A stretch of DNA of 64,000 nucleotides from a virus. A program made the position numbers and the translations under genes. The DNA is taken from positions 1-64,000 of the IMG/VR virus record IMGVR_UViG_3300010373_000003; one strand, written 5' to 3'. Shown one piece after another: positions 341 through 61,000 of this stretch (its first letter is position 1; every line of letters begins with the position of its first letter). The notes under the pieces are model-generated. The model saw only the letters and a list, made by a program, of their open reading frames with translations, ran no database searches and had not been told where the DNA came from.

Positions 341-817
341 TTATTCTTGATAAGAATGTTCAGTAATAAAACTAGGTTTAGTATCAGTACTAGGAGAAGC
401 TACAAACCAACCATTAGCATCATATTGAGAAGATTTAAACTCATCAACATTAACACATAATATAGTATGAGCTTCTAATTTATTATTAGCAACTACAATA
501 GCAACGCCAGAACCATAACCTACTTTACATTTATTGTAATAGACGTATAACACTGATTCTGACTGCTGTACCTCCCCCGTAGAGGAATCACCCTCAATAG
601 ACTTTACTAGATCTCCATCAGATAGATCTTTAATATCATTATGAACTTCATTAACGACTTTATTAAAAGTACAACTAATCATACTCATAACCATAACTCT
701 ATCCATAACAGATAGTTGACTAATATTAACAGGTTTATAGTTCTTAGTAATAGTATGATAAACAGGTTTGTTATCAACACTAATAATATTTATTTTAAAA
801 TCTTTATTATTTTCCAT
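341..817 (-). CDS. two-domain hypothetical protein (158 aa; start revised to MENNKDF)
   Basis: The track ORF 341..1021 has a spurious hydrophobic N-terminal extension overlapping 807..1109; ATG at 817 overlaps the previous stop. Confidence 0.7.
   Translation of the reverse strand: MENNKDFKINIISVDNKPVYHTITKNYKPVNISQLSVMDRVMVMSMISCTFNKVVNEVHNDIKDLSDGDLVKSIEGDSSTGEVQQSESVLYVYYNKCKVGYGSGVAIVVANNKLEAHTILCVNVDEFKSSQYDANGWFVASPSTDTKPSFITEHSYQE
572..587 (-). repeat. dispersed 16-bp element, copy 1 (TTCCTCTACGGGGGAG)
   Basis: + strand CTCCCCCGTAGAGGAA; encodes SSTGE in the linker of 341..817. Confidence 0.9.
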
Positions 818-1109
818 AATCTTGGACTTTATAGTTAAGTAAATAAAAACTAGGATTATAATTAAACTCATCAATATCAAAGTCTTTGTACTTAATAACA
901 GCAACAAAATCATTAAATGATATAGATTTAAATACACCTTTATTATCTTTAAAGGAACCACTACTAAATACTTTATGATCTTCACTATCATCACCTGCAT
1001 AGAATCTAATAGATAAACCATAACGTTTAACTTTATCTTCTATATATTCAGTAATACATATCATAGGAGTATCAATAGGTATCTCTGTTCTATAAGGACT
1101 ATTTCCCAT
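807..1109 (-). CDS. hypothetical protein (100 aa; start MGNSPY)
   Basis: ATG at 1109 overlaps the end of 1099..1287; operon-like packing. Confidence 0.65.
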   Translation of the reverse strand: MGNSPYRTEIPIDTPMICITEYIEDKVKRYGLSIRFYAGDDSEDHKVFSSGSFKDNKGVFKSISFNDFVAVIKYKDFDIDEFNYNPSFYLLNYKVQDYGK

Positions 1110-1287: not shown

Positions 1288-1289
1288 AA

Positions 1290-1478: not shown

Positions 1479-1694
1479 GAATAATTAATATTAATGGGTT
1501 ATAAATGATTTTAATGAGATTTAAGCCACTCAATTATAATTCTCGATTAATAACCTTACTATTACAGGTCAATTGATTGTGCAGCCCCGAGCAGCTATCT
1601 ATCGACAAATAGTAAGGTTATCAACCATTCAGGTTGTATACTATCCAGTATTTACCTTTAATATCATTAGTATCTTTAGCAATACTAATATTTG

Positions 1695-1766
1695 TTGTAT
1701 TAGCAGGATTCGAACCCACATCAATCGCTTAGAAAACAATTGCTCTACCAGTTGAGCTATAATACA
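1695..1766 (-). tRNA. tRNA-Arg (anticodon UCU)
   Basis: Minus strand folds as acceptor TGTATTA/TAATACA, D-arm GCTC-AACTGGTA-GAGC, anticodon arm ATTGT-TTTCTAA-GCGAT, T-arm GTGGG-TTCGAAT-CCTGC; followed by CAA rather than CCA. Confidence 0.85.
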
Positions 1767-1801
1767 AACCAACTTAACGATGAAAAGTTAGTTTATGGTA
1801 T

Positions 1802-2447: not shown

Positions 2448-2470
2448 AATAATAACAATTGGTTTAAAAC

Positions 2471-2714: not shown

Positions 2715-3428
2715 CTATTTATTAGTTAAAGAGTCATGGATATAAGCAATTTCTTCATTAGAACAAACATCATTAATGGTCTTACCCATTTCTAAATGAA
2801 TGAACTTATCAATAGTCTTTTGAGCAGAAGCACTAAAACTAGCAAATGAAGCAGCTAAACAGTTTAAGAAGAAAGGCTCAGTATAAGAATACTCTTTAGT
2901 AAGAGTATCAACCTTAACAGAAAACTTATTCCACTTAAATGTAACAAACCTAGATTTACCTTTAATCTCTCCCTTTTGTAAAAGGTAATTAAGAACACCA
3001 AGACTAGTAAACCTACGTATCTCAGCATTGTTCTTAATAATAAGAGCAATTTCAACCATATGAGCAGGATACTCACCATTAATAGGAGGCAACTCTACAC
3101 CATTAGCTTTATTGTTAACAGGTTTATTGTTATGCTTAAAAGGTTGCTTAGTAGCAATAGCATTATGTTTAACTGGATGTTGTTTAGCAACATGAGTGTT
3201 ACTTACAACGTCTGCATCTGTATGATATACAGTAGCATCAGGCTGCGGTTTGTCTTCCTCTACGGGCAAGCTCTTATTGTCAACAACTTCAGGAGCTTTC
3301 TTATCAGTAGCAATAACCTTATCTACAATATCACTTTCAGTAATAGTAGACTTAGAAACAGCTTTAGTAGCTTTCTTAGCAGCAGGTTTAGTCTTAGTAG
3401 TGGCAAAAGTTTGATCAATTTGTGTCAT
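2715..3428 (-). CDS. hypothetical protein with Lys/Thr/Ala-rich low-complexity N-terminus (237 aa; start MTQIDQ)
   Basis: ORF track 2715..3497; start revised to the ATG at 3428 after an AT-rich leader. Confidence 0.75.
   Translation of the reverse strand: MTQIDQTFATTKTKPAAKKATKAVSKSTITESDIVDKVIATDKKAPEVVDNKSLPVEEDKPQPDATVYHTDADVVSNTHVAKQHPVKHNAIATKQPFKHNNKPVNNKANGVELPPINGEYPAHMVEIALIIKNNAEIRRFTSLGVLNYLLQKGEIKGKSRFVTFKWNKFSVKVDTLTKEYSYTEPFFLNCLAASFASFSASAQKTIDKFIHLEMGKTINDVCSNEEIAYIHDSLTNK
3255..3270 (+). repeat. dispersed 16-bp element, copy 2 (TTCCTCTACGGGCAAG)
   Basis: Antisense to its host gene; encodes LPVEE. Confidence 0.85.
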
Positions 3429-3659
3429 AACAATAACAATTTTAATATTAGTATAATTAAGAATAATATGATAAGCACCATGCAAACCATATAACATTTA
3501 AGGTACGAACTATATAATCAAAAGTGAAAATAATTAATATATTTTTATTAATACATGTCGCTCCATGAGCATGTTAAGTATGCTCAAAAGAACAATCAAC
3601 ATATAACAGTATAATTAATATAAATCAACTATATTTAATTTGATTATAAGTATAAATAA

Positions 3660-7552: not shown

Positions 7553-7582
7553 TTGTATGCTGAACATCAAATGTTTATATTG
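7553..7582 (+). promoter_or_regulatory. putative Bacteroidota-type promoter TTG-N20-TATATTG
   Basis: Resembles the -33 TTG / -7 TAnnTTTG consensus; same arrangement at 8464, 18571 and 33738. Confidence 0.4.
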
Positions 7583-7612
7583 AGAACATTGGATGTTAGT
7601 AATAATATAAGT

Positions 7613-8053
7613 ATGAGCATTAAAGTATATAATCAAAAGTCTAATATAACAGTTTATGATAATGTTAATATTAAACATGCTACTAAAGAAGAAGTATTGC
7701 ATTTAACTATAGACAATAATAAAGATTATTTAAGAACTATAATTAAAATTATTGCAGATAGTCTTTATCTTAATGATAGTGAAAGAGAATTATATTATAT
7801 ATTAAGTAGAGATACTGTTGATTGTTCTCCTGTAAATAAAGATAAAGTTATTAATACTACTTTATATGCTTTTAATAAAACTGCTGTAACTTATCATAGA
7901 GCTATTAAAAATCTTATTATTAAAGGAGTTATTAGATATCATAATAACTATAATGATATTAGTCTTACTAATACTTTTAATGTTAATACTATTACTAAAG
8001 GTATTAAATATATTGTTATAGATGTTAAAGATGCAGGAGATGATAGTGAATAA
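7613..8053 (+). CDS. winged-helix DNA-binding protein, RepL-like (146 aa; start MSIKVY)
   Basis: LNDSERELYYIL...TYHRAIKNLIIKGVIRY winged-HTH pattern; sits at the strand switch next to origin-like DNA. Confidence 0.55.
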   Translation: MSIKVYNQKSNITVYDNVNIKHATKEEVLHLTIDNNKDYLRTIIKIIADSLYLNDSERELYYILSRDTVDCSPVNKDKVINTTLYAFNKTAVTYHRAIKNLIIKGVIRYHNNYNDISLTNTFNVNTITKGIKYIVIDVKDAGDDSE

Positions 8054-9245: not shown

Positions 9246-9261
9246 TTCCTCTACGGGGGAG
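9246..9261 (+). repeat. dispersed 16-bp element, copy 3 (TTCCTCTACGGGGGAG)
   Basis: Intergenic, about 45 bp upstream of the HU/IHF-like gene. Confidence 0.9.
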
Positions 9262-9304: not shown

Positions 9305-9829
9305 ATGAATGATACTAAGTCCAATGATATAGATAATATTAATACTGAATATAGTATGGTTGTTAGGACTATGCCTGATGTATTATATCATGTCTCTAAA
9401 GATCCTATGGATAGACTTATATGTGAGTCTATTATAGATAATCTTGAAGAGACTGCTGCTAATGCTGTATTAGCGGATAAAGTTGTCCAACTTCCTTATA
9501 TAGGATGTATTAGACGCAATCCTATTAAGTTAGCTATTAAAGCTCAACATATTAATTTTAGTGCTGCTAGAAAAGTAATGACTACTGATCAGTATAAAGA
9601 TCATGTTAGAGAAGTCATTATTGATGTTAAAGAAAATCAAATTAAACTAGATAAGAATAAGTCATTTCTTAAAAAGTTTAAAGCTAAGAATCAAAAGAAG
9701 TATGACTCTTTGTATATTAGAATAGGTAAAGGTTATGCTGATATGTATATTCAATCTCTTCTTATGTTTAAAGAGATTCCATTTGATATTGAAGTACAGC
9801 AACATTTTGATAATTTAAATGGTTATTAA
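9305..9829 (+). CDS. HU/IHF-like DNA-binding protein with helical extension (174 aa; start MNDTKS)
   Basis: IIDNLEETAANAVLADKVVQLPYIGCI resembles the HU helix-2/strand pattern; crAss-like phages carry IHF-like genes in the structural block. Confidence 0.55.
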   Translation: MNDTKSNDIDNINTEYSMVVRTMPDVLYHVSKDPMDRLICESIIDNLEETAANAVLADKVVQLPYIGCIRRNPIKLAIKAQHINFSAARKVMTTDQYKDHVREVIIDVKENQIKLDKNKSFLKKFKAKNQKKYDSLYIRIGKGYADMYIQSLLMFKEIPFDIEVQQHFDNLNGY

Positions 9830-12995: not shown

Positions 12996-13281
12996 ATATA
13001 GTCTAATATCATTTGGGTTAGGATTGCTAGTAGGTATGCTGGTTATAAGTTTGTTAGATAAGAAATTTGGTCCTACCGGAGAATTACTTAAACAACCTGA
13101 CACAACCTATAACAAAGTTAAACTTGATAGCATTAATGTTCAAATAGGTAAACACGATACCACAATTTATAAACTTAATATTAAACTTAAAGATGATGTT
13201 GAAAAGAGCTATCAATTGTCTGATAGTGCTACTGTTGATCTGTTCCGTAAACTTAGTACAGGGACAGATAAAGATAAGTAA
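12982..13281 (+). CDS. spanin-like membrane protein with N-terminal TM (99 aa; start MELNKY)
   Basis: Overlaps the endolysin stop; TM LISFGLGLLVGMLVISLL. Confidence 0.55.
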   Translation: MELNKYSLISFGLGLLVGMLVISLLDKKFGPTGELLKQPDTTYNKVKLDSINVQIGKHDTTIYKLNIKLKDDVEKSYQLSDSATVDLFRKLSTGTDKDK

Positions 13282-13618
13282 GCCGATTGTTCTCTCTACG
13301 GGGGAGATACTAAAATCAGATACGTCTAAAGTTACTATTCCAATTAGTTATATACGTGATGCTAATGCTAAACTTATAGAACGTAATTATCTTATTAAGA
13401 TTAATGCTGAACAAGATTCTGTTATTAAACTTAATAAACTTTATGCTAAAGAACAAGATGTTATTATTAAAGACTTTCAACTTAGATTGTATGAAAGTAA
13501 TATGTATAATAGTCAACTTGAAAAAGATATTATTAAACAGAGAAATAAAACTAAGATTTTAACAGGAGTATCTGGTGTTAGTATACTAGTTGTTATTATA
13601 TCTTTGTTTGTTAAATAA
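13193..13618 (+). CDS. spanin-like protein: signal peptide, coiled coil, C-terminal TM
   Basis: Overlaps the previous gene by 89 bp, reminiscent of Rz/Rz1 pairs. Confidence 0.55.
   Translation: MMLKRAINCLIVLLLICSVNLVQGQIKISKPIVLSTGEILKSDTSKVTIPISYIRDANAKLIERNYLIKINAEQDSVIKLNKLYAKEQDVIIKDFQLRLYESNMYNSQLEKDIIKQRNKTKILTGVSGVSILVVIISLFVK
13291..13306 (+). repeat. dispersed 16-bp element, copy 4 (TCTCTCTACGGGGGAG)
   Basis: 14/16 match; encodes LSTGE. Confidence 0.8.
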
Positions 13619-18462: not shown

Positions 18463-18478
18463 TTCCTCTACGGGGGAG
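18463..18478 (+). repeat. dispersed 16-bp element, copy 5 (TTCCTCTACGGGGGAG)
   Basis: Intergenic, between portal and scaffold-like gene. Confidence 0.9.
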
Positions 18479-21489: not shown

Positions 21490-22662
21490 ATGAATGAAAA
21501 TAATTCTGTAGGGGGTGGTCAATTTGCATTTGGTAAAGCAAATACTCCCGTTGAGAAACAGAAAGATAGTATTACCTCGCCCGTAGAGGAAGCAGATATT
21601 AGACAAACTATTAATACTGCTGTTTACGAAGAAGAACAAGAATCAGAAGATATTATGTCTTCTGAATATACTCATGAAGCTAGTATATCTATTTCTCTAG
21701 TTAAGAATTATTCATTATACCGTAGGGCTAATGATAAAGTTCTTCCTAAGAAGAGAGATTATATAGGTGGATCAGTTAGTGCTTCTCGTATTCTATCTTC
21801 AAACAAAGAAGAGGTTGAAAACTATTTTCCAACTATACTTGGTCTTAATGCTAGTCATCAAGATTTTACAATGAGACTTAAACAATATCTAAATAATATT
21901 CGTATAGCTGTAGATGAGCTAGGAATTAATTTAGATATTTCTTTTGTTTATCATCGTAAGTCTGATTATTATAAATTTAGAGACGCTGCGCAAAAGATTG
22001 AAGATGACTTTAATAAAGTTGATCGTCAGAATCTATCTAAGCTTAAAGCTGCTTTAAAAGATAAGATAACTAAACTGAACGTACTTGAAAGTACTAAACA
22101 TAAATATGGTTATCCTGTCAATGTAGATCATTATATAAGTTACAGACATTGTTTACTGTATGATGATATAGCTAAAGATGTCGCTATTATTAATAGCAAT
22201 ACTTCAGTTAGATTCTACTTTAAAGATGATCAGAGAGAAGAAGATAAACTTCGTAAATTCAGAGGTGAGGTTAATAAGGCTAAAGTTAACTATGTTGCTA
22301 CTTTATCTGATGATGTATTATTTGATGCAGTTTATATTCAGTATTTAGTCGAAGAGAGACAACCTGTTATTGCTGGACTTCTTGAGAAGAGAATGGATAG
22401 AGAAACTAAACTTGATAAATTTAGTGGAGAAGAACCTATTAAATTCAACAAGATTGTTAACTCTAAACATGTTAAACTTATCGGTACTATTGAATTACTA
22501 ATTGCTCATGGTCAATTACAACGTTCGCAGTTTAATCAGAATATTACTACAGATGAAGGTAACTTTATAGGTTCTAATATGAAGGAAGCTGTTGCTTGGT
22601 TTACTAACCCTGACAATAACTCTACTGTTGACGCTTATTACAATAAGTTAAAGAATACTTAA
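21490..22662 (+). CDS. crAss-type conserved protein downstream of MCP (390 aa)
   Basis: YGYPVNVDHYISYRHCL and FIGSNMKEAVAWF patterns; position. Confidence 0.7.
   Translation: MNENNSVGGGQFAFGKANTPVEKQKDSITSPVEEADIRQTINTAVYEEEQESEDIMSSEYTHEASISISLVKNYSLYRRANDKVLPKKRDYIGGSVSASRILSSNKEEVENYFPTILGLNASHQDFTMRLKQYLNNIRIAVDELGINLDISFVYHRKSDYYKFRDAAQKIEDDFNKVDRQNLSKLKAALKDKITKLNVLESTKHKYGYPVNVDHYISYRHCLLYDDIAKDVAIINSNTSVRFYFKDDQREEDKLRKFRGEVNKAKVNYVATLSDDVLFDAVYIQYLVEERQPVIAGLLEKRMDRETKLDKFSGEEPIKFNKIVNSKHVKLIGTIELLIAHGQLQRSQFNQNITTDEGNFIGSNMKEAVAWFTNPDNNSTVDAYYNKLKNT
21576..21591 (-). repeat. dispersed 16-bp element, copy 6 (TTCCTCTACGGGCGAG)
   Basis: + strand CTCGCCCGTAGAGGAA; encodes SPVEE. Confidence 0.9.
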
Positions 22663-34496: not shown

Positions 34497-35444
34497 ATGA
34501 CCCCTGATGTTAATTTAAAAAGTTATTATCTCCAATATATCAGTAATGCTAAAGCTGATATTATAAAGTATAATGAAGCTATTGCTCAAACTATAGAGAT
34601 AAAAGAAAAACTATATGAATATTTAGATAAACATATTGTTGATATTAAAATTCATTATAATATTAATCTTGCTGATTATGATAAAGAATGGAATCATAAA
34701 GAGTATGATAATGAAGTTCTCTATAATAAAGTTATAACAACTCTTAATGTTGTATCTAGTACAGATGTTAATAGAATTAAACTTATTCAACTTATCAAAT
34801 ATTGTAATGCTCTTCGTTCTGAATATAAGAATAGACAACTAATAACTATTTGTGATACTCGTAAGAATATTACTTTTGGTAAATATCGTACTTACGTTGT
34901 TAATTATTATAATCAAGTTCATAAGGTTGTATTAGAAGGTGATGGTTATAAGTTTGGTCATGGTATCGGAACTTATTGTATTAATCATTGGAAGATTGAT
35001 CTAGATAAGCATAACAAAGTTAAACGTTTAGACTTTGCTGCTACTAATGCTAAGAAGAAAGAACTTATAGCTAAAGGAGTTAAACTTTATGATGATAAAG
35101 AAGCTACTTGGTATGCTGCTAGAAATATACCGTATGATGGTGTACATTATAGAGTGTTTAAAAATGAAAGTTCTTTCTATGATTTTACTTTTGTTAAATC
35201 TTCTATTTTTCCTGCTAAGACTCTTGAATATAAGAGAACTGAATATATTGCTACTAAGTATAGAGGTCTGTCATATAAAGATATGTACGACGCTCTATGT
35301 ACAAGTATAAAAGATGTTTATACTTTACAAGTTGATATTAAGTATAAACTTAATATTCTTTTACATAAAGATCCTAATATTTATTTAAACTTTATTCGTA
35401 ATGCTGAACAACACAAGTATAAGCGTGGAGCACATAATAGCTAA
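34497..35444 (+). CDS. crAss-type protein with divergent HU/IHF-like domain (315 aa)
   Basis: YYNQVHKVVLEGDGYKFGHGIGTYCI..LDFAATNAKKKELI pattern; position before ring and stabilisation genes. Confidence 0.55.
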   Translation: MTPDVNLKSYYLQYISNAKADIIKYNEAIAQTIEIKEKLYEYLDKHIVDIKIHYNINLADYDKEWNHKEYDNEVLYNKVITTLNVVSSTDVNRIKLIQLIKYCNALRSEYKNRQLITICDTRKNITFGKYRTYVVNYYNQVHKVVLEGDGYKFGHGIGTYCINHWKIDLDKHNKVKRLDFAATNAKKKELIAKGVKLYDDKEATWYAARNIPYDGVHYRVFKNESSFYDFTFVKSSIFPAKTLEYKRTEYIATKYRGLSYKDMYDALCTSIKDVYTLQVDIKYKLNILLHKDPNIYLNFIRNAEQHKYKRGAHNS

Positions 35445-36234
35445 GTTAGACAATGACTTTAATATAGATCATGGTGATTGGATACCTCGTGTTGGTGCGT
35501 GGATTATAGATGCTATGGGTCAGCTAAATGTTCTTCGTAAGAAACGTAGTAAAATAAAGCTAGATGTTCATAACTGTATAGCTTATTCTAATTGTCCTAT
35601 TAATAGTCCTAATCTTATAGTTACTGATTCTAATGGTTGCCCAATTGTCAAACATAAATCTAATGCTAGTGGTTGTTGTTCTTCCTCTACGGGGGAGGTA
35701 ACAAAGCTAGGTGATGTAACTCCCTCAACGGTAGATGCTATCTATAATCCTAATGCTGCTTATGTCCCAGATCATACTGTAGCTGAAACTGTCAATGGTA
35801 GTAATAAACCTCCTAGATATAATATTGTTAACTATGATAACTCTGGAGGACAACCTAGAAATTATGTTCTATTAGATGATAACAAACTTGAATTAAACTT
35901 TAATACAAGTTGTGTTTATGTTGAAACTGATGTAGTTGAAACTGTATGGAGTAAAACCTATGAATGCGATATTCCTGTTGTTCCTAATGTTGGTATTCTT
36001 ATAGAAGCTATTGGTTTTTATTGTATGTATAAAATGTTAACTCGTGGATATAAACATCCTGTATTTAATCTTAATGCTAGTCAATATGGAACTAATCCTT
36101 ATTATGAGTGGAAGACTCTAAAACCTGAAGCTAAGAGAGCTGTTACTATTGATGCTCAGGGTAATATACTGGTTACTGATGGAGGTCTATTTAAAAGTTC
36201 ATTCTTTATCACTACATTCCCCAATAGTAAATAG
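35401..36234 (+). CDS. tail tubular / ring protein
   Basis: Directly before the tail stabilisation gene; IPVVPN..LIEAIGFYCMYK. Confidence 0.6.
   Translation: MLNNTSISVEHIIAKLDNDFNIDHGDWIPRVGAWIIDAMGQLNVLRKKRSKIKLDVHNCIAYSNCPINSPNLIVTDSNGCPIVKHKSNASGCCSSSTGEVTKLGDVTPSTVDAIYNPNAAYVPDHTVAETVNGSNKPPRYNIVNYDNSGGQPRNYVLLDDNKLELNFNTSCVYVETDVVETVWSKTYECDIPVVPNVGILIEAIGFYCMYKMLTRGYKHPVFNLNASQYGTNPYYEWKTLKPEAKRAVTIDAQGNILVTDGGLFKSSFFITTFPNSK
35682..35697 (+). repeat. dispersed 16-bp element, copy 7 (TTCCTCTACGGGGGAG)
   Basis: Encodes SSTGE. Confidence 0.9.
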
Positions 36235-39300: not shown

Positions 39301-40818
39301 GTATTTAACACTGCTAATAATAGAGTTTTTAGAATTAATAATCATGATCATTATTATAAGTTTGAGGTTCCAAATGATAAACCTCATACTTATCAGAATG
39401 ATGTTCCTTTTCTAGCTTATTTACAATTACCTATATGTACTGATGTATTCTTTGAAAGTAAGTCTTATAAGAATAGTCCTGTAGGATTTATGTCTTTAGT
39501 TAAAGGTTCAGATGAGAACTCTAATAAGTTTGCTAAAGGTACTATGGTTACTCCTGTTAATAGTATTGATTTATTTGAAAATAGACAAGGTTCTGCTGAT
39601 CAGTTTAATCCTAAGACTTATGTTAACTTTAGAGAAGATTTAGTTTCTGTTGAACAATTTGATAAGACTATTCGTAGATCTAATGTTATACAGAATGAAA
39701 GTAGAGTTAATGGTTGGAGAACTTTCCCTATTGAAGGTTATAAAAATATAACTGAGAATAAAGGAAAGATTACTAATATAATTGGAATAGGTACTGTTCT
39801 ACTTGCACATACTGAACATAGTATGTTTATGTTTGATACTGATAATACTCTTAAGACTGAAGGTAAAGATATTCAATTATTACAACCTGATGCTTTTGAA
39901 GTATCGTACAATGAAGTGTTTACTTCTGATAAAGGTTTTGGTGGTTTACAAGATGATAAATCATATATTGTTAATGACTTTGGTTATATATTTTATAGTG
40001 ATGATACTAATCGTATTTATCGGTTTGACGATAAGCAGTTAGATAACATGGACGAAGATATAATACAATGGCTTAAAAAATATAAACCTTTTAATGTTAG
40101 GATGGCTAACGATAAAGAAAATAATCGTATACTTATGAAATTCGATTATCTTGTTACTGGACTAACTAGAAGTACTGTTATTAGTTATAATTATAATGAG
40201 AAGAATTTTGTATCTCAACATCCTTATTACTTTGACGAAGCTTTTAATACTAAAGTTGGTTTATACTTACAATGCACTAATGATCATAATGGATGCTCTT
40301 TACATAATTTTGATTATAAAGGAGATGTTTATGGTAGATATGATAATATCAAAGGTACATTAGGTCAATCAATTGTTGCTCATTCTAAACTTAGTTTTAT
40401 TATTAATGATTCTTATAGTATTGTTAAGTTCTTAGAGTATATTACTTATAAACTTACTAAGTATGCCGAGTATTCCGGTACTGATTTTACTAACTTGCCC
40501 GTAGAGGAATACAAGACTCCTTATGCTGGATATACACTTGCTGTATATAATAATAATGTTAATACTGGTGTATTAAATATAACTACTGACATTGAAGCAA
40601 ACAAAAACATGTTTGATGTTATTGACAAACCTTATTGGGATTTAGGAGTTTGGAACTTTAGTTATCTTCGTAATAGAATAAGTGAACTAAATAATGGAGT
40701 TAGTGATGATAATATAACTAGATTATTTGGTAACTATTTCATTGTTGAATTTGTATTTGATAACGAGGACGGTCGTAAGATTGATTTTGAAGAATTAAAT
40801 TATAATGTTTCTGAGTAA
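36358..40818 (+). CDS. tail stabilisation / muzzle protein (P22 gp10-like)
   Basis: 1486 aa, beta-rich; KLNLNKHP start, NRLYISNY, GWRTF..YKNITENKGKITNI, FGNYFIVEF. Confidence 0.75.
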   Translation: MSVNTKLNLNKHPKDNDNLSLVNAQAVKISHDGSCITSEDSIKENSFIHNYLSAFYGTNPVIGYKIVGIIPCNNELVIVVKPSNTVDDADIFRYQEPINDNIEKMYCAYGGLGSPNRFKYQGGLIKGAFTYNVENSLVIAISEYGNSNIRIPLRTINLGNSDDPTVYNDKDLSNSKLYISPEVRLPSVNNLDYTAGSAYKGWYYMFIRYKINSVDYTQWYSIGPPIYIDTLEQYQIIRYPFGRDTKFAASALNDIVSPAWPDDGYGAGASDYFSNSSDIAKETFKVDLYFNKNIDYTKYQIGVICASKSYTKAFRTADIYLDKNYNEGFNVRIQKYVLDNKSLIEYNVSSFITDNGNYFNSKNVINYKNRLYISNYLEDNANNDDIPQSIIDSINVNLYTSYVRDYGLVYDTALIVNWVTGANQYDTYKFTEIPLARFLNISEETIVTISASGHTTKISKAGQFYITSGNSVPGYAYIQLREPGPLGSVSVTNYGVQPYSDYIYLAIADVNNNPQSNFTFDPVRSAINGGMMYTNTNIDFDSRKKQSCLIPGEVYNFNIHFTNKYSGATNGYRIPNNTKWIVNGEPNREIIPISFNLRVNSETVTYYAAMDVDSNVAREDFTVNERYSINVNGIRFFKQYNTFGTSPTLSSEVTSPSDLQSCVAAFKEFFSSYNSDKFSTTKWYQVSYGPGGDKFHLFINNNGDRLFKIPTIESFTGAWDGFPDEVAPFKQYNLHTLMRASFDNIEIPEGYDGFYISYEKFESQARATGLLTRNDFRTQDWIVKGGNTVQLGTRNSAKSDKMFFYSSTYDISDTIKLDYSIMRIEAINPFKKEDIPEWDYFQRNNTFNFLHDMNKPQVASYFEDVQRTYAMPEYKIAVADSVADDRMGVGTALQIKDSYNLFASYVTSAGIHDRLKVYRVTLLNTTRDIYMSDSKTLIRLGDVVYRSEGAPTNYKYSQYINSGYNGHYTYDGIPIYENAGVVFNTANNRVFRINNHDHYYKFEVPNDKPHTYQNDVPFLAYLQLPICTDVFFESKSYKNSPVGFMSLVKGSDENSNKFAKGTMVTPVNSIDLFENRQGSADQFNPKTYVNFREDLVSVEQFDKTIRRSNVIQNESRVNGWRTFPIEGYKNITENKGKITNIIGIGTVLLAHTEHSMFMFDTDNTLKTEGKDIQLLQPDAFEVSYNEVFTSDKGFGGLQDDKSYIVNDFGYIFYSDDTNRIYRFDDKQLDNMDEDIIQWLKKYKPFNVRMANDKENNRILMKFDYLVTGLTRSTVISYNYNEKNFVSQHPYYFDEAFNTKVGLYLQCTNDHNGCSLHNFDYKGDVYGRYDNIKGTLGQSIVAHSKLSFIINDSYSIVKFLEYITYKLTKYAEYSGTDFTNLPVEEYKTPYAGYTLAVYNNNVNTGVLNITTDIEANKNMFDVIDKPYWDLGVWNFSYLRNRISELNNGVSDDNITRLFGNYFIVEFVFDNEDGRKIDFEELNYNVSE
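40494..40509 (-). repeat. dispersed 16-bp element, copy 8 (TTCCTCTACGGGCAAG)
   Basis: + strand CTTGCCCGTAGAGGAA; encodes LPVEE. Confidence 0.85.
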
Positions 40819-45558: not shown

Positions 45559-48500
45559 ATGGATATTAATGACTTTTTAAATAACGGAGTTACGGTTAAG
45601 AACCCTAATTATAAGAAACCCACTAAGAGAGATCCTAGTGGGTCTCCTCGTTTTATACAATCTGGTGATTACAATGCAGCTGTTGATCGTGATAGTCGTA
45701 TTGGTGGATTTCTTGCTGAAAATAGTTATGATCTAACAGGTCTTAACAATGACGAGAATAAGTATGCTGATTATGATGTCCGTATTAACCCAGTTAATAC
45801 TAAAGATGAACTTGATCAACAACGTGCTAAGAACCAATCTGCTTGGGAACAAACAGGTAGACTTGTTACGCAAGCTGTAGGTAATGAAATAGTTCTAGGT
45901 ACTGCTTTAGGATTATCCAATCTTGTAGATATGGGTGTTAATATTGGTAAAGAGGCTGGAAAAGATGATTATACTAATCCTTTTAGTACTTTCTTAGAAG
46001 GTAAACAAGATGAGATTAGAAAAGCTTTTGAGATATACCAAGAGAATCCTAATGAGACTTTTCAAGTTGGAGACTTTGGATGGTGGGCAGGTAATGCTGT
46101 AAGTGTTGCTTCTACATTATCTATGCTTATACCTTCAATGGCAGTTACTAAAGGTTTAGGTGCAGCTGGTAAATTTGCTAAACTTGAAAGACTTAGTACT
46201 GGTATTGCTAAAGCAGCTAGTGGTGTAGGTCTAACAAAGAATACTGCTACATTAGCTAGAGCTATTAACTCTGGTGCTGAAATAGGTACCGCAGCGTTAC
46301 TTAGTAGAACAATGGAAGGATATCTTGAAGCTAGAGGTGTTTATAAGGAAACTTATGATAAATCTTTAGGTAAACTTGAATCTATGACTGTTGATGAGAA
46401 AGCTAAGCTTTTTAAGAATAATCCTCAGTTTGTTGGAATGTCTAATGAAGAAATGGCTAGTAATATGTCTAGTTTTTCTGCTGATGAAACCTTTAAGAAT
46501 GATTATGCAATGTTACTATTTGATATTGCTCAATTTAAAGCTTTAGGTTCTATGTGGAAAGGTGTTGCTAATAAAGCAGTTAACTCTACTCTAAGAACAG
46601 CTAATAGAAATGCTATTGCTGGACTTGCTGATGATGGAGCAGCTGCTATTGGAAACATGGGATTCTTTGCTAAACGTGCTGAGATTATTAAACATGCTAT
46701 AAAGAATCCTATGAGTAGTCTTACAGCTATTCAACTTAGTGAAGGTCTTGAAGAAGGTTATCAAGGAGTTCAAACAGAGAAAGGTAAAGAGATTGCTGAA
46801 AAGATGCTTGATCCTAATTTTAATGCTAGAACTCTTGAAAGTTATCTTAAAGATGGTGCTATATGGGAACAAGCATTTTGGGGAGTAGTTGGAGGAATGG
46901 CTTTCCAATCTATAGGTACTGGTGTTGGTAATTTAGCTACAGCTGTTAAAGGTAAAGTTAATAAACGTACTATGTCTGAAGAAGATTATGCTCTTTCTCA
47001 AATGACTGATGAAAAGATCAGAGAACAAGAGATTGTAGGTCGTCAGGCTCGTATGCAAGACTTTACAGAGAGTATGCAGCTTCTTAATAATGGTAAGAAT
47101 CCTTTTGGTTATAAGATTGATCCTGATACTAAACAACCTATTCTAGCAGACGGTAGTAAAGTCAATGAAGATGTTAGTCAAGAAGAAGCTGAATTGCTTA
47201 AGACTCAACTTACTAATGATTTTGTTACTAATATGGTATTAGATGCTACTGATAAAGGTAATTACGATCTATTCAAAGAATATGTTACTGATCAGAACTT
47301 TGATAAGTTCTTTCAAGATGCTGGACTAGAGTCTAACTCTGGTGATAAATCTTTTAGTAGAATGTTAGTTGATAAGATGGATCAAACATATGAAGAATAC
47401 AATGGTGCTCTTTATGATGTTATGAATTCTATTAGTGTAGAGAATGAAAGTGTGGCTAAGATTGTGGCACGAAGTATTGCTAGAAGAAAACTACAAGTAT
47501 CAGACTTATATAATAGTTCTGATGATCTAGCTAATCAAATAGCAACTAACGCAGATACTACTGATTATATAGATTATGAAGAGAATCAAAGAGTTAAATA
47601 TGTAAAAGATCGTATAGCTGAAATAGATAAAAAAGAACAAGGTCTTCAAGAAATGTTAACTAATAAACAAATTAGTTCTCAAGCTGTAGATCAAATTATT
47701 AAAGAAAATAATATTAGACGTAATCAACTTCTAGCATTTGCTTCTACTGGTAATATGTTTGGTAACCCTGATGTTATAAGCAATATCTTAAGTTCTAATA
47801 TTAATGATGCTAATACTGGTGAATTCTTAGCAGAGTTTAATAAGTTCTTAGCAACTATTGATCAAGATGTTAAACCCGGTACTCCTAAGAAGTCTGTTCA
47901 AGATATTGTTAAAAAGAAGATTGAAGTAGATGATCATTTAGATTATATTGAGAAAACATTACCTACTACACAATCTAACTATCAAACAGAATATGATGAT
48001 GTTGCTAGAAATGTAGATAGACTTACTGTTGAAAGATATGATAAAGCTGTAGACATTGTAGGAGAATATATAGAATCTCAACCAGATCTAGATACAGCTC
48101 ATAACAATGTTATGACTAATAATGTTCCTGCTAATATAAAGGAACAATTAGATATACTTAAACTTGGACATCATAGTACTTCTAAATATACTAGTCAGAT
48201 TAATTCTATATTCAGAGAAGTTAACAATGATAGAACAGCAGCTGCTGCTGAAGCTAGAAATGTTAATGTTGATAATACTGTTACTAATGATACTACAGCT
48301 GAAAATGATATACTTGATATAGATGGTGTAGTTGCTGAAACTGACAATAGAGAATCTGTCACTGAGTCTTCCTCTACGGGGGAGGTTATACAATCAGATG
48401 TATCAAAACCGGCTGCTGTTGAAGAAGTAGTTAATCCTGAAACATTTATTGCTCCTTTTGACATAGTTGAAGAAGTTGCTTCTTTAGATAAAGCTACTGA

Positions 48501-51500
48501 AAGTGTTATCAATGATCAAACTAATGATTTTATATTAGACAATGATGCAAGAGCTGTAGGTTTAGCAAGTAGTATTACTTTTAATCTATTTAAAACTTCT
48601 CGTAATCTATTTGATAATCTAGAAGGTAAAGATGTTAATAGTTCTGAATTTAATAATATTGTTGATATAGTTGCTGATGATTTATTTACACAAGGTGTAT
48701 CTAGAGGTTATACTAGACAAGCTGCTGTAGATGGTATTAGAATGGCAATGAATATGATACATCGTAGACTTAGTTCTAAGAATATTAGTGGTGCTGATAT
48801 GTTTAAAGTATTAGCTGATCAGCTTGCTAATAAACAAAGAGTTGAAGTTGATAGTGAAGGTAAAGCTTCTACTACTACTCTTATTCCTGATAGTGAATTT
48901 AATCAAGTTATTGATCAGTTCATTGATAATTATATTCAAAATAGAGGAGTATATACTGTTAAAGGATTTAAGACTATTATTAATGTTGAAGATTTGTTTA
49001 GAGAACTATTAAATAATGATGGTATTACTTATGAGCAAGCTAAACATGTATTCTTTAATATAGCTGATTATATCAGAGCAAATAATCCTAAGTATATATT
49101 TATTAATAAGACTGATCTTAATAAGAATCTTAAGACTCCTAGTACTTTTTTTAATAATCTTATTAATAATAAATCAACTGTTGAAACAGTAGATAGTTAT
49201 ATGCATATAGCTGCTCCTTCTAATAAACCTGAAGGTTATGATAAAGCTGTAAATGAAGCTATTAATGGAGAACCAGTTGTTATTAGTTATTTTGAAGGAG
49301 AACGAGGTACTAGTAATAACTCTATTTCTATTAAAAGAAATGGTATTGAGATTGGTTATCTTGGTTCTGTTCAACCTAATCCTATTAATACTGGTTATAA
49401 ATTAAAGAGACAGAATCAAGGTTTTGTTTATGATCTTGTTAATAACAATGGTAACATTGAAAGTAATTTAGATAAACTATTTATACCTCTTATTAATAGA
49501 GAAACTACTAATTATTCTTATTTAATGGATATTGCTTATAAGCAATTTGCTTATGAAAGTGCTATTAAAAATGGATCTTCTAGTCAAGATATTACTTCTG
49601 ATGAAGTGAGAGACATTGTACATAATGCTATGATTAAATCATTAGTTGCTTCAGGAGATATTAAAATACCTGCTGATAAGATTACTGATAAGATGAAGGC
49701 TAAGTATATACTTAATCAAATTAATAACATTATCTTTTATGATAATGCTGCGATTACTACTCCTTTAATATTAGAGAGTTATGCTTATTGGAAGTCTTCT
49801 ACTTTTAATAATTATGTTAATACTCATAAGATACAACAAGGTCTTGATACTAACAAAAAGATTAATACTAAGCTTGTAAATGTTGCTACTGGTAAAGTAT
49901 TATTAGATAATACTAATCATAATATTTCTGATATAGGTTTTACTTATGAACAAAACCCTATTATGATAGTAGATGCTAATGGTAATATTATCAATGAAAA
50001 AGCTAATACTAGTTATAGCAATGTAGCTGGATTTGAAGTAGGCACTATGGGTATGTTGATTACTGATAATCCTAGTGCTCCTATTATAGCTTTATTTACA
50101 GAATCTAATAATGTTTCTAGTAATAAAGAACTTGCTAATAGAGTATATTCTGAACTTACAGATTTACTTACAGGTTTTCAAAATAGAGAAGTTAGTTTTG
50201 ATAAACTAGCTACTTCATTAGGAGATATGTTTAGTGGTCCGGGTATTAGAAGTAATAATCTATTTAGTGGTTATAGTGTTATTAAAACTAATGATAGAAT
50301 AGCTCTTAATATACAAGGTCGTAAAGGAGAGTATAATCTTATTGTTCATAAGTTTGAAAAAGGTTCTAATACAGAAGGAACTGGTATTACTCATATACCT
50401 AATGGTGATAAGAGTAAAGCTAATAGTTCTGTTACTACTAGTAAATCTTTTAATAATGCTATTGCTAAAGAGATTGTTTCTAATCTTACTTTTAATAAAA
50501 CATTCTATGCTATTAACAATAAGAATGTTGATAATGATAAATCTAATCAATATCTGTATAAAGAAGGAGGTAAACTAATAATTGAAATAGGAGGTAAGAA
50601 AGATAGTTATAATAGTTTTGGTCAGTTTGTTTTGACTAATAATGCTTTTAAGACTAATCAAGGTAAAAATAAAGATGGTGGTTTCTTTGACACAACTGAT
50701 GCTGTTAAGTCACTTTACATCAATACTGCAATCATTACCTCGCCCGTAGAGGAAACACCATTGACAGATCGTAATAGAACTGCTTCTGATGTTATTAAAT
50801 CAGCTACTAAGACTGAGAGTGTTAATACTTCTGAAATACTAAGTTTAGCAGGAGTTGAAGAAGATAAGATTGCTGTTCTTACTGGTACTAATCAGTTTGG
50901 TATAGAACTTATTCCTAAGGAATCGTACTTTGATAATCGTGCTACTAAAGCTGAAGCTTATTATAGTAAAGGTAAAATGTACTTTACTAATAAAGGTGCT
51001 AATAATATTAGAAGAAGTCCTAATAACCTTATGAGACTTCTTATTCATGAAAATCTTCATGCTAAGTTTGAAGAACAAGGTTTGTTTCAACAAGCTGGTA
51101 TTGTAGATGATCTTATGAATACTTATAATAGTTTTATTGAAGCTGTTAATAATGATACTACAAGTGCTGAAGTTAAAGTTATTAAAAATTGGATTGAAAC
51201 TAATAAATTTAATCCTATTGATTATATTAGTACTTTATCTGTCGAACAACAAAGAGCATGGATTAATCGTAGTGATGCTGATAAAGCTGCTCAATTTGCT
51301 GAAGAATGGTTAGTTGAAAGTCTTACTCAACCTTCTATTATTAGATATCTTAATAATACTATTTATACTGGAGGAGATGTTTCTGTTGAAGGAATTGATA
51401 ATAGTGCTAAGACTATATGGCAACGTATTATAGATGTTCTATTAAAATTATTTGGTAGAAATAGTGGAAATATAAAAAATAATACTATATTAGCACAACA

Positions 51501-55000: not shown

Positions 55001-58000
55001 AATACTCATAATCTAATAGATCGTGCTCACTATAATGGTGATAGTGTTGTAAAAGATGGAGTACTTACTGGTAATTTCTTTAACTTTATTAGACTATTTG
55101 AAACACAAGGTTATAAAGCTAATGAAGAGATTAAGAATGCTTTCTTCCTCTACGGGGGAGATACAGCTAACGGTATTGATCCACTGCTCGTTAAGAATAA
55201 GAAAGGTGATCTAACTCTTAATATTAATAGAAAAGATCTTATTGCTATTAATAATAATCATATAGAGCTTAGTATATCTGATAATAACTTAGAAGTTATT
55301 GATTCTGTTGTTGAGAATTGGCTTAATAATTATTATAATGAAGTACTAGATAAAACTTCTCAGTTTAATACTATTATTGAAGATAGATATTCTAATAATG
55401 ATATTGTTGACTATGCTGTTAACAATGCTATTATGGAAATGAACTTTGATGATGTGTTTGAAGGTGATAGTAAGTTCTATAAAGGACCTCAGGATTTCCT
55501 TAAGAGAGCAAAAGAAGTTCAAGCTGCTGGTAAAGCTTATACTGGTTTTAATATTAATGAAGCTATTGGTGGTCCAGTTCATCCTATTAAAGATGCAAGT
55601 GGTGGTGAGATTCCTATAATGGTTAATGGAGTTGAAGTTGCTAAGGCTAGAAATGGTTTTAAAGGTGTTACTATTTATAATACCGTTAGACCTTCTCAAA
55701 GTGCTGGTCAAATAAAACAAGAACTTGTAGGTATACTTACTCCTAGTGTTGGTAAGACTGAAGCTAATCGTATTGCTACTGAAATATCTCAAGGTTATTT
55801 TGATTCTACTAAAGTCAATGATGCTCAATCCTATATTACTCTTGATGAGTTTATAGCTAGACGTCATGCAGATGGTACATTGAATGATTATCAAGATTTA
55901 CTTGCTCAATTAACTGATGATAAAATCAGTGTTGGAGATATGAATCTTAAAGGTATTAATGCTCGTATTCAAGTACAGAAGAACTTCTATTTTGATAAAC
56001 AGTTTGATGATAATACTGGAACCTTTTATCCTAGACAGATTAAGAATGCTGAATTTGTTCTTATTCCTAAGTTGATTAAAGGTACTGATCTTGAAACTCT
56101 TTATAACATAATGAAAGCTAATGGTGTTGACCAAGTTAATACTGTTGAAGCTTCTAAAGCTGCTAAAAAGAATATACTTACTTTTTGGGATAATCAAGGT
56201 GTTGCTAATGCTGAAGCGTTTGATGCTAGTCTTAAAGCTGATAACAATATAGCTATTGAAGACTACTACTATCAGTATCTTTATAAACAACAAGATGTTG
56301 CTGATCATATGGTTAATGAGAAGAACAAAGCTGGTATTCAAATCATGAAGAAAATCATTGATAATGCTAATGCTGAAGTTCAAGGAGATATTGATAATTT
56401 CTTTAATAGCTATGTTGCTAATATTAAAGATGACTTTAATATGCTTCTTAATCGTATGGGTTGGAGAGTTGAAAATGGTTCTTTAGTTGATAGTAGTGGT
56501 AAGACTAATGCTGATGGTAAGAATGTACTTCAATTTGAAGATTTTTATAAGAAAGCACGTGTTGAGGCTCAACGTCTTGGTATGGATTCTAACTTTATAG
56601 AATATCTTACTCCTGATCAGTTTGGTTCTCCTGTTATGCCTAACTATATGAACAATGTCTCTTCTAAGTTAGAAAGTATTGCTCAAAGTATATTTAATAA
56701 TGGTGTTACTAGACAGACTCTTCCTGGATGGCATGCTGCTCAGGTTACTAGTGTTGGACATGGTGTTCCATCATTAGGAGAAGATGGTGTATGGAGAACT
56801 CTTAAGTATCACCCTCAAGTTACTAGAGAAGATGGTACAGTAGTTCAAGAAGCTTATGCTGAAGTTATGCTTCCTAGATGGAGTACTTTAATTCCTAAAG
56901 ATTATGATATTTCTAAGTTAGAATCTGAAGGTATTGATATTCATTTAGGTTATCGTATTCCTACTGAAGGTAAACAATCTATTAGTAATCTAAAAGTTGT
57001 TGCTTTCTTAGATGAGGTTTATGGTTCTACTATTATGGTTCCTGATGAATGGGTAACTCAAACAGGTAGTGACTTTGACGTTGATAGTGTTTATGGTATT
57101 TCTCATGAAATATATAAAGACAGAGAGGGTACTATTAAGAAAGTACAGTTTGATAACTCTACAGAAGTTAAAGATGTTGAACGTAGATATGTTAATTATA
57201 TTAATGGAGCTATAGAACATCGTGTAGATAAAGATATTATACCTGATGAGTTTATAACTGATAAAGTTAATGAAGCTAGAGATCAAATTAAAGACTTAGA
57301 TATTGTTAGAAAAGAATCTAAATATCTTGGTGAATTGATTTCTAATCATGGTAGTATTTATAGACAACTTCCTACTGAGGTTCAAGATCAAGTTAAATCT
57401 ATTAATAGAAGATTTAGAACTGGTAATATATATGATAGATACAATGCTTTAGCTGCTACATTTGAAGTACTATCTTCTCAGGAAACTGGAGAACTTAAAG
57501 ATGTTTATGAAGAATTTGGTTCTTATAGTGAGGCTATTGCTAATGCTTATGAATATATTAAAAGTATAGATACTGATTCTATTCCTAAGTTTAATAAGTC
57601 TGAAGTTATTAAAGGTATATTTGAAAATGCTCGTATTGAGTATTTAAATAAAGTTAAGAAAGCTGCTAAAGCTTCTAATCTTGTTACTTATGAAGAGTTT
57701 GCTAATTGGTCTATAGAAGATCAGAATAGTCGTAAGGCTCGTAATAATAGGATATTAGATAGTATGATTAATGTTATGAATAATAGTAATTCTCGTGAAG
57801 AGAACTATTCTCGTAGTAATTTTGATGATCTATCTAATGCTATGAAGAAAATGAATGCTCTTCGTGGTGCTTCCTCTATTGTTCGTAGTGCTTATAATCC
57901 TTTAGATCAAGTTGATTTTATGGAGAATGCTATGAGTGGTGCTACTCTTAAAGCTTTCTCTGTTACTAGAGATACTTTTAATTCTGTTAATAACTATACA

Positions 58001-61000
58001 AAATCTAAACTAGGTGAAGGTCATGAAATTAAAGTTGAGTATGATCTTAATCAATATGATATTAAACATTTAAATAGCGCTTATAATGGTGTACAACTTG
58101 ATAAATCTCGTAATGTGGCTATTGTTATGCATAATAGCTTGGCTAATAGTAATAACAACAGGAACGTTGTTGGTAAAATCCTTACAGTTTATAGTTCTCA
58201 AACTACAGCTCATATTCTAGATGCTGTTAAAGAAGGTACTATTTTCAATGAGAATGATTATACCTTTGGAACATTTAAAACTCTTATTGATGTAGGTATT
58301 GATTATGAAACTGCTATTGGTTTCTTAATGCAACCAGGAATTACTAAGATTGTAGATGCTTACTTCCAAAGTAAAAGTATTTATATTAATAGTACTTCTA
58401 ACCCTATTAATGTTGCTATTAAGTCTATAGCTACTGATCTAGGTATTACTATTGGAGGACGTGCTATTGATGACTATACCCCTGTTAAGAGTGTAGTACA
58501 AAGATTGAGTACTTACCCGAGATTGCAAATGGCGTATAGACAGCTGTTTGCAGCTAATCTAGGATATAATAATACTATTGACGTACAATCACAAAACCTT
58601 AATGGTTTAATGCTTCAGAACCGCTTAAAAGGGGTTGAAATAACTAATACTTTAACATTAACACTAGATCAACAACAGTATCAAAATGCTGCTTTTGATT
58701 TAGCTATGATTGCTAACTTTGATAAGTATCGTAAGACTACTCGTAATATTGAAGCTTTAGCTAGAGTTAGTAATCCTGATAGGTTTGGTGCTAAGCAAAC
58801 AATTAGAGGAACTAGAGTTACTTTAAATAATATTGCTAAATATGCTACTGATCCTAATGATATAGTTGGTGAAACTATAATGGTTGGAAATAAGAATATT
58901 ATTCAATCTTTATACCCAGGTTTTAATACTAGAGAAGGTATAGATATTACTAATAGTTCTTATCCATATCTTGCTGCGTTTTTAAAGTTTGCTACTCAAC
59001 CTAGTGTTGAAGCTAATAGTCAGTTGTTTCCTACTGAAAGTAATAGTTATAATGCTATTACAGATACTGTTCAAGCTAGAATGGGTATTAATTTTACTGA
59101 TGAACAGTATAAAGAATATAAACAATATATGATTTCTAATGTTTATGCTGGTGTTCCATTTTTAACATCACCTTTAACATTGAATGAATATGGTTTAATT
59201 ACTTTAGATAATGTAGCTATTGAAGCTGAAGTTAATTTAAATAATCAATATTGGGATGTTGAACGTTCTAGAATATTTGGTTACGATGTTACCCAAAGTG
59301 GCAATATTACTATTAAAGATATTAATAATCCTAATGAGGAAGAAGTATTTAATTTTAATCAACTTACTCCTGCTCAGAAAGTTATATGGATTCAACGTAA
59401 TTTTAATGAAGGTAGAGGTGTATTTGATTTCTTAGATGTTAATACTTTTAATCAGTATGAGTTTAAGAATAAAGGATTTAGTAGTCAATCTATTAAATAT
59501 AGTGATCAAATTGATGATATTGAAGAAGTGTATGTTGCTTTTAGAGATAGCTTCTTTAATAAGAATCCTTTAGTTAGACTTGCTACTATTGACTTAATTA
59601 AGTATTCTTTTGTTGCTGAAGGGTTTAAATTTAAACGTGGAAGTATTAGTAAAATTATTACTAATGATACGTTGTATTCTAATCTAGAAGATAAAGGTAT
59701 TAATCTAATTGAAGCTATACAGCAACAATTTATGATTTATAATAATCCTCTTGAAGCTACTACTCAAAAGTTTATTGATAAGTTTATACGTAGTCATAGT
59801 GAACTTGTTAAAGAAGTTTCTATTCCTAAAGGTAAAACTGATAAACAAGGTAATGAGAATATTGGTCGTAAGTTTAATAGACAAATACAAGGAGAGAATA
59901 TAGTTTTTATTCCTTTTGCTGAGTCTACTAAAGAGTTACTAGAACATCTTAACATTATTGAAGATAGTCCTAAAGGTTATGTTAGAATTGGTAGATATAT
60001 CAATGATACTCAACGTAGAACTACTTTATATAAAGTTACTAATACTAGACAAGGTGTTTATTTAACTCCTTTGAATATACTTGAACGTAATGAGACTTCT
60101 GAGTATTCAGTTAATGCTAAAAATAACTTATATAAAGCTACTGAATATTATGATGCTATAATTAATTTATCTGTAGATAATGGAGTTCCTGTTAATGAGT
60201 TACTTAAAGATGGTAAAACTGTTGAACAACTTAATATTCTTAAAGATCAGTTTACTATAACTCCTCATAAGTCTAAACATATAATTGAAAGTGTTGAAAA
60301 CACTAATGAAGTTATTAGAGTTATGCAGTATGGTACTAATATTGAGCAAGCTGAGACTGCTAAGTTTGTATCTGACATTGTAGATTACATAACTTCCCCT
60401 GTAGAGGAAGCAGGTAACTATGGCGTTATTAAAAATGATAATGGTTTTATTAATTCTCTTATCCCTCATGGTGTTTCTGTTATTCAGAACATACCTAATG
60501 GTGAAGATATTATAACTGTTAAGATTACTAAACATACTAAGAAGAATGGTTTAAGTAAACAATTTGAATATGTACTTAAAGGAGACAAACGTGGAGATCT
60601 TGCTAAGGTTAAACCTGAAGAAAGAAAGGCTTTACAGAACTCTATTGATGCTAAAAGTATTAGACCTACATTATATAAGATTGAAAGGGTTACCAGTGAA
60701 CAAGAAAGAGAGAACTACGAAGAACTTAGAAAACAAGTAGAAGATCAAGCTGCTTCTCAAATGAATGCAGTTACTAATCTAATTGAAGACTTTGATGTAG
60801 ATGTTGTTTTCAATTATACTGAAACTGATAAGGTTGCTAAAGATATATTTAATGAACTTAATAAACGTGCTTTATCTAATGATGATAAACGTGCTGTTAA
60901 ATTTAAGAAAGCTATGGATATAGCAGGTATAGATAGGACTAGTGCTAATTCTATACATGATAATAAGAGAAATATATATACTTCTGCTGCTAAGTATTAT

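Follow-up and report, generated by a model that had tools for sequence, protein, structure and literature searches.

A GC-rich 16-bp element recurs along the genome of a crAss-like phage, and in silico analysis of its copies argues for a DNA-level, strand-specific signal that is private to Intestiviridae and is read by a trans-acting factor changing with it (probability about 0.9). As to its function, our tentative preference (roughly 0.3), drawn from sequence comparison, is for strand-specific start or loading sites for phage DNA synthesis. The window, i.e., the whole stretch of DNA that was analyzed, comprises the first 64 kb (positions 1 to 64,000) of the 92,895-bp virus record IMGVR_UViG_3300010373_000003 of IMG/VR, whose ends overlap by 123 bp. 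The genome was identified as crAss-like from its terminase, portal and major capsid genes, and its capsid protein shares 73% identity with the one from Carjivirus communis (prototype crAssphage).

Using the 16-mer TTCCTCTACGGGGGAG as a query (up to two mismatches allowed), 12 copies were found in the window, seven on the plus and five on the minus strand, and 18 in the whole genome (Table 1), while 100 dinucleotide-preserving shuffles yielded none. An initial annotation of the window, made from the sequence alone, had listed the same 12 copies, six of them identical, with spacings of 2.4-7.9 kb and a single 14-kb gap. These positions and spacings were confirmed (six exact copies, six with one or two mismatches; longest gap 14.1 kb), and the (G/A)TA that it had noticed after the motif is real. 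The conserved stretch is longer than 16 nt, since RTA is followed by five bases and then by an ATC(A)G box, with C at position +26 in 17 of the 18 copies. The motif in this genome is TTCCTCTACGGG[G/C][G/A]AG-RTA-N5-ATC, and its core is composed of a pyrimidine-rich arm, TAC and a G-run. A second TA(C) box, placed 11-12 nt after the first (about one helical turn), is common to all spellings of the motif described below. The motif family is sharp and has no decayed members: none was detected genome-wide, all 17 occurrences of the 7-mer CTACGGG fall within a copy, and the weakest copy scores 29.6 bits against a position-weight matrix threshold of 14 bits.

Table 1. Copies of the motif in the genome (12 within the window, six beyond it).
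Position	Strand	Form	Location	Reading	Further observations
572..587	-	exact	sense in gene 341-1021	SSTGE	
3255..3270	+	GGGCAAG variant	antisense in gene 2715-3497	LPVEE	
9246..9261	+	exact	intergenic, co-oriented; TAC 53 nt upstream of ATG of 9305-9829		orthologous intergenic copy in relatives G013, G003 and G006
13291..13306	+	TCTC... form	sense in 13193-13618	LSTGE	ortholog in 8/8 relatives compared, each with its own spelling
18463..18478	+	exact	intergenic, between portal gene and 18633-19964, co-oriented; TAC 164 nt upstream of ATG		
21576..21591	-	GGGCGAG variant	antisense in 21490-22662	SPVEE	GGGGGAG form at the orthologous positions of relatives
35682..35697	+	exact	sense in 35401-36234	SSTGE	orthologous copies in 6/8 relatives
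40494..40509	-	GGGCAAG variant	antisense in 36358-40818	LPVEE	
48369..48384	+	exact	sense in 2112-amino-acid gene 45559-51897	SSTGE	
50739..50754	-	GGGCGAG variant	antisense in 45559-51897	SPVEE	
55145..55160	+	exact	sense in 4532-amino-acid gene starting at 52028	FLYGG	
60394..60409	-	TACAGGGGAA variant	antisense in gene starting at 52028	SPVEE	orthologous copy in relative G006
66214	+		beyond window		
66291	-		beyond window		
75834	-		beyond window		
78242	+		beyond window		
80087	-		beyond window		
84919	+		beyond window		

Inspection of the codon reading of each copy bore out the earlier statement that two window copies are intergenic and ten lie in genes, where they are read in three ways: as SSTGE-type peptides (four copies), as [S/L]PVEE (five copies, all antisense) and as FLYGG (one copy). 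Genome-wide, the seven sense copies comprise four of the SSTGE type and three of the [F/I]LYGG type, and all seven antisense copies are read as [S/L]PVEE. The codons used at these places are rare, as had also been proposed, each accounting for 1-3% of its synonymous set: ACG (2% of Thr codons), GGG (3% of Gly), CCC (3% of Pro), TCG and TCC (1 and 2% of Ser) and CTC (2% of Leu). The codon-preserving control suggested in the initial annotation, performed by shuffling synonymous codons within genes, left approx. 2.3 copies on average compared with the 18 observed, which is roughly the number located outside called genes. The outcome named there as a refutation, counts no higher than the codon-shuffled expectation, was thus not obtained. 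The motif is a real DNA-level signal.

The motif was then compared with its counterparts in related IMG/VR genomes (64-90% capsid identity), which align with this genome over 13-56% of its length at 68-70% identity. Each relative carries 27-40 copies in a spelling of its own. The core, a pyrimidine-rich arm followed by TAC[G/A]GGG, is kept, while the arms differ; examples of lineage spellings are TTTCTTCTACGGGGGAGCT; TCCCTCTACGGGGGAG; ..TACGGGGGGTCT; CATACCTTTTACGGGG[C/G]GGCTAGA; and T.TCTCTACAGGGAATT. Orthologous copies were found in relatives of 65-70% nucleotide identity, amid diverged and indel-rich flanks, e.g., in the primase gene (80087-), the SNF2-like gene (84919+), 13193-13618 and 35401-36234. 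Because each genome uses its own spelling at all of its 18-40 sites, orthologous positions included, the sites have changed in place and in concert, as would be expected if they co-evolve with a reader. In six independent pairs of genomes (90-94% identity), 162 of 171 sites (95%) are retained at the orthologous position. Divergence in these pairs is 0-2% at TAC and the G-run, 2-6% at positions -4 to -1 and about 10% elsewhere; a core match was required in both genomes, so that part of the low core divergence is forced and the 95% retention is the cleaner figure. Orthologous conservation, concerted spellings and this retention together support two earlier suggestions, namely that selection acts on the nucleic acid and not on the protein, and that the copies constitute a distributed cis-acting system; the factor reading them is lineage-specific and probably phage-encoded.

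The same observations bear on an origin of the copies as a miniature mobile element, or as a by-product of a repeated peptide or of codon bias. Such an origin would account for many near-identical copies, some of them in inverted pairs, and for the recurrence of the peptides SSTGE and SPVEE. A mobile element is contradicted by the orthologous positions shared across deep divergence with the spelling changed in place, by the lack of target duplications and decayed copies, and by the unrelated flanks, while a protein-level artefact is contradicted by the reading of the same nucleotides in three frames, on both strands and with the rarest codons, and by their removal upon synonymous shuffling. 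Both are practically excluded.

Several variants of the spelling were noted. In the copies at 3255, 21576, 40494 and 50739, as well as at 66291 and 78242 beyond the window, the G-run is interrupted by C (GGGCRAG). Copies of this kind are nearly all antisense (21/109 antisense vs. 6/120 sense copies in 11 genomes; Fisher p = 0.0009), which in the genome pair G028/G029 is partly explained by coding (Arg-Pro vs. Pro-Pro); in this genome the choice of TCG or TCC is synonymous and has no coding explanation. Phage crAss002 (NC_055828.1) mixes two spellings, CTCCTTTACGGGGGA (12 copies) and CTCCTTTATGGGGGA (15 copies), and the otherwise "invariant" TAC can be TAT there; p-crAssphage likewise mixes TAC (16 copies) and CAC (15 copies). 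An excess of divergence just 5' of the motif, apparent in G028/G029 (15.9% vs. 6.6%, p = 0.003), was rejected, as it was not replicated over the six genome pairs (11.2% vs. 10.8%, p = 0.14). In the G028/G029 alignment about 5-6 of 17 breaks occur near a site, a count confounded by the presence of sites in variable non-coding DNA.

The initial annotation had also predicted that the G5 form of the motif can fold in RNA as a C(UACG)G tetraloop hairpin. This prediction was not supported: the pyrimidine-run and G-run arms pair no better than in within-genome shuffles and show no covariation, the single-stranded DNA folds of the copies are weak (-1.3 to -3.1 kcal/mol, z-scores of -0.2 to -2.3), and the CAAG variant yields no fold. 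With half of the copies, in addition, antisense to mRNA, a hairpin with a UNCG tetraloop was rejected.

All carriers of the motif that were found belong to Intestiviridae. Besides the IMG/VR relatives, they include (i) C. communis, with 31 copies of tCCATCCTC[T/C]ACGGGG[G/A]GT placed as evenly on each strand as in this genome (see below), (ii) Rudgehvirus jaberico (cultured, Bacteroides cellulosilyticus), with 26 copies, (iii) crAss002 (cultured, B. xylanisolvens), with approx. 27 copies, the TAT spelling included, and (iv) cr107_1, with 10 core matches. The core is absent from crAss001 (Steigviridae), cr127_1 (Crevaviridae) and five Suoliviridae, and a de novo k-mer scan of these genomes revealed no comparable word. 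A different GC-rich repeat of approx. 33 nt (GTTTAATGGCCACAAGGGCGAGAGGTGTTCCGA) occurs in cr127_1 (NC_055886.1), its approx. 10 copies being divided equally between the strands (5+/5-). Searches by string, with four of the spellings, and by keyword found no description of the motif in a literature library outside which most subscription journals lie, and neither a 2023 review of Crassvirales (PMC10136315) nor a preprint on the phi14:2 RNA polymerase (10.1101/2020.03.07.982082) describes it. The motif system is apparently undescribed so far across Intestiviridae.

The signal is thus conserved in a family that includes C. communis, which is among the most abundant human-gut viruses and whose replication and gene expression are largely uncharacterized. 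Selection is strong enough to force the rarest codons into essential genes (terminase-neighbor, primase, PolB-neighbor and virion RNA polymerase genes); the motif therefore points to a step that is central to the life cycle of the phage and has not been studied. The existence of two cultured carriers (crAss002 and R. jaberico) makes the question directly testable. The lineage spellings could be used as compact typing markers for Intestiviridae, and they need to be respected when phages of this family are recoded or engineered.

The arrangement of the motif was examined for 269 sites in nine genomes. Ninety-nine sites are sense, 90 antisense and 80 intergenic, the intergenic share (30%) exceeding that of non-coding DNA (8-10%). 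The two strands carry equal numbers, and adjacent sites switch strand more often than by chance. Gaps between sites of the same strand are even, with a coefficient of variation (CV) of 0.31-0.54 compared with about 0.9 for random placement, and for almost every genome and strand, random placement would give a smaller minimum gap and a larger maximum gap than those observed. In this genome, which has one copy every 6-9 kb on each strand, the CV is 0.43 on the plus strand (p = 0.004) and 0.47 on the minus strand (p = 0.034), and the shortest same-strand gaps are 4,045 and 4,253 bp. Copies on opposite strands may lie as close as 23-90 bp in most genomes, mostly in non-coding DNA, and the phasing of one strand relative to the other varies among genomes. 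No relation of the sites to gene ends or to the Bacteroidetes -7 box was found. Evenness on each strand, with opposite-strand copies placed freely, indicates that the DNA is read strand-specifically and independently of transcription.

This arrangement bears directly on a role of the copies as promoters, or as promoters of primer RNA, for a phage RNA polymerase (RNAP). Promoters of the T7 group (T7, T3, SP6 and K11) are, like the motif, asymmetric words of about 20 bp that occur in tens of copies per genome, have a G-rich segment after a TA step, and show a lineage-specific spelling changing with the phage-encoded reader. The length of the motif (about 20 bp), its 18-40 copies, its lineage-specific spelling and the G-run after TA(C), as in T7/T3 initiation regions, would all suit this function, as would the single intergenic copies, most of which are aimed at the downstream gene, with TAC 26-70 nt before its ATG, and recur upstream of a few orthologous genes. 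However, T7 promoters point with the genes and lie between them, whereas half of the coding copies of the motif are antisense, 70% of the sites are intragenic with no relation to gene starts, and both strands are evenly covered. In addition, the giant RNAP is universal in Crassvirales, while the three other families sampled lack the motif. Annotations of p-crAssphage and Rudgehvirus list only giant multisubunit-type RNAP genes, although no search aimed at a T7-type RNAP was made. Early transcripts of the phi14:2 virion RNAP have no common upstream motif, and the middle and late genes of this phage use the host RNAP (bioRxiv 10.1101/2020.03.07.982082). A promoter function is therefore, in our estimation, very unlikely.

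A further comparison made in the initial annotation was with the stoperators of mycobacteriophage L5 and with bacterial parS/matS sites. Like the motif, L5 stoperators are asymmetric, similar in copy number and dispersed genome-wide, also within genes. Such sites are targets of a temperate-phage repressor, and their orientation follows that of transcription. The motif differs from them in having no orientation bias and an order that is kept per strand, and no repressor was identified; with 99 sense and 90 antisense sites and this per-strand order, which a plain duplex operator leaves unexplained, neither analogy was upheld. More generally, an oriented duplex-binding phage protein might bind the asymmetric site and organize the genome or act as a polar roadblock. 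Its long asymmetric footprint (approx. 24-33 bp) with two TA(C) boxes one helical turn apart would suit such a protein, and so would the concerted change of site and reader; moreover, four genomes have an intergenic copy 53-70 nt upstream of gene 9305-9829, which is specific to Intestiviridae, an arrangement that resembles autoregulation. We nevertheless consider this explanation unlikely, as a duplex operator would not be expected to show per-strand evenness with free opposite-strand placement, the copies are not biased in orientation with respect to transcription, and the binders that had been put forward, two HU/IHF-like proteins and a RepL-like protein, are not supported.

With regard to these binders, the 174-amino-acid product of 9305-9829 gave an all-helical model with no fold match and no match of HU/IHF type. 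The second putative HU/IHF-like gene, 34497-35444, adjoins 33804-34487, whose product is the tail ring protein 2 (Pfam CrAss_Ring_2, E-value 1.8e-43) and whose p-crAssphage ortholog bears the annotation of an IHF subunit. Genes labeled "IHF-like" in this block therefore probably encode tail ring proteins; in the structure of crAss001, "IHF-like" crAss proteins were reportedly shown to be tail ring proteins. The predicted RepL-like gene (7571-8053) is not supported by Pfam, and BLASTP found no counterpart in this genome for the RepL genes of p-crAssphage.

Two other classes of strand-specific sites were considered. If a phage nickase cut the motif strand at each copy, localized single-strand interruptions would arise in virion DNA. 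The nick-associated motifs of T5, phiKMV-like and tf-like phages resemble the motif in being dispersed, conserved and strand-specific and in occurring also in genes; the motif is likewise asymmetric, with lineage-specific spellings, and the phage encodes an ATP-dependent ligase. It differs from them in its equal numbers on both strands, with opposite copies 23-90 bp apart in most genomes. Nicks at such close opposite-strand copies would in effect be staggered double-strand breaks, the copies are not confined to one strand in the manner of T5, and no nickase was identified, which leaves nick sites improbable.

A Chi-like self-marker, by comparison, would be read on one strand by a helicase-nuclease or translocase scanning from a break, whose activity would change at the motif; with evenly spaced copies in both orientations, damage would be kept within limits wherever the enzyme entered. 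The motif would provide an orientation-dependent, gene-independent signal, about one per 3-5 kb, with per-strand gaps bounded at both ends, and the phage encodes an SF1 helicase, a PD-(D/E)XK-type exonuclease, a RecT-like gene and a Gam-like Gp157 protein. The Chi sites of RecBCD/AddAB are similarly one-strand, orientation-dependent, located in genes and present once per few kb; as to an orientation-dependent action on a scanning enzyme, the even per-strand spacing of the motif is the one compatible observation. Known Chi sites are 5-8 nt long, set by the host enzyme and skewed with the direction of replication, whereas the motif is a word of 16-24 nt that is specific to the phage lineage, differs between related phages and is equally frequent on both strands. 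A Gam-like inhibitor would also lessen the need for Chi. We assign a Chi-like function a low probability.

Taken together, the data fit a signal that is read one strand at a time, is needed at bounded intervals on both strands, and depends on a factor evolving with the motif. Under the reading that we favor, each copy would be used, on the strand carrying it, as a site where phage DNA synthesis starts or is loaded, the start being the priming or re-priming of a single-stranded template. No part of either strand would then be more than a few kb away from a usable site, whatever the direction of the fork or of the displaced strand, and opposite-strand pairs in non-coding DNA (e.g., 66214+/66291-) would be two-way start points. 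The reader may be a factor confined to Intestiviridae that either works on its own or directs the DnaG-type primase, which is universal. A replication role fits the phage's own PolB, SF1 helicase, DnaG-type primase and ligase, and also the inverted site pairs, which lie in non-coding DNA bordering the replication block. Among known systems, single-strand initiation (ssi) and primase sites (RSF1010 ssiA/ssiB, the G4 origin and T7 primase sites) are strand-specific start signals, and the inverted motif pair, on opposite strands of non-coding DNA, resembles ssiA/ssiB.

Several points weigh against start or loading sites. Known primases read 3-5 nt and not 16-24 nt, and known ssi signals are hairpin-dependent, whereas no hairpin is supported at the motif; ssi sites moreover number one or two per replicon, as opposed to 18-40 long unstructured copies. 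A DnaG-type primase profile is present in all 11 genomes from four Crassvirales families, so that the primase, being universal, cannot alone explain a motif restricted to Intestiviridae. The second TA(C) box one helical turn away hints at recognition of duplex DNA, and even per-strand spacing is equally expected for any directional process that scans DNA. A link with the switching between PolA and PolB was also considered and rejected, because PolA is found only in crAss001, yet the motif-free Crevaviridae and Suoliviridae are likewise without PolA.

The motif may instead represent a phage-private, strand-specific genome punctuation of a new kind, read by machinery found only in Intestiviridae and being neither promoter, primase site, nick nor Chi, a possibility that we regard as doubtful but worth retaining. 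By way of example, the phage DNA might be self-marked for a scanning enzyme that spares marked DNA, with a gp19-like protein or the SNF2-like ATPase encoded next to PolB as candidate readers. If so, the motif would be what can be seen of a genome punctuation, not described so far, in the phages that are most abundant in the human gut.

Whether the copies are start sites for DNA synthesis or punctuation, candidate readers can be proposed by phyletic pattern. Three conserved proteins occur exclusively, or almost exclusively, in Intestiviridae: the gp19-like protein (82081-82908), the 174-amino-acid product of 9305-9829, and an ATPase of SNF2-like type (84028-85413) that Crevaviridae have as well. 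As several proteins share this profile, these three are leads and not evidence. The gp19-like protein is a conserved 275-amino-acid product encoded on the minus strand between RecT-like and SSB-like genes; it was found only in Intestiviridae, apart from a marginal N-terminal match next to the primase of cr127_1. Its structural model is confident (pLDDT 81) but has no fold match (Foldseek E-values of at least 0.1, VIA Z-scores of at most 4). The N-terminal segment resembles a strand-helix motif of the AbrB/MraZ type, with only weak MraZ and B3 hits (Z of about 3). Pfam and PHROGs gave no match for most of the motif-bearing and candidate proteins.

The copies of the convergent pair 66214+/66291- (genome positions 66214-66306) are separated by 77 bp. 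The pair lies in non-coding DNA where the structural block gives way to the replication block, and it encloses three tandem 9-bp repeats (TYAAGAYSR). Its position matches that of the p-crAssphage pair 28083-/28177+, downstream of an N4_gp49-like gene. An interpretation of the three repeats as iterons was rejected, since they are not seen at the paired sites of relatives.

Rfam and tRNA scans returned a single match, a tRNA-Arg(TCT) gene (window positions 1694-1766, minus strand; Rfam 63.5 bits; ARAGORN) located among small minus-strand genes, away from any copy of the motif. The replication block (genome positions 66486-75204) contains genes of counter-defense type, encoding members of the N4_gp49/Sf6_gp66 family, DUF932 and Sipho_Gp157 (Gam-like) proteins, and a Tad3-like Thoeris inhibitor domain (E-value 7e-26).

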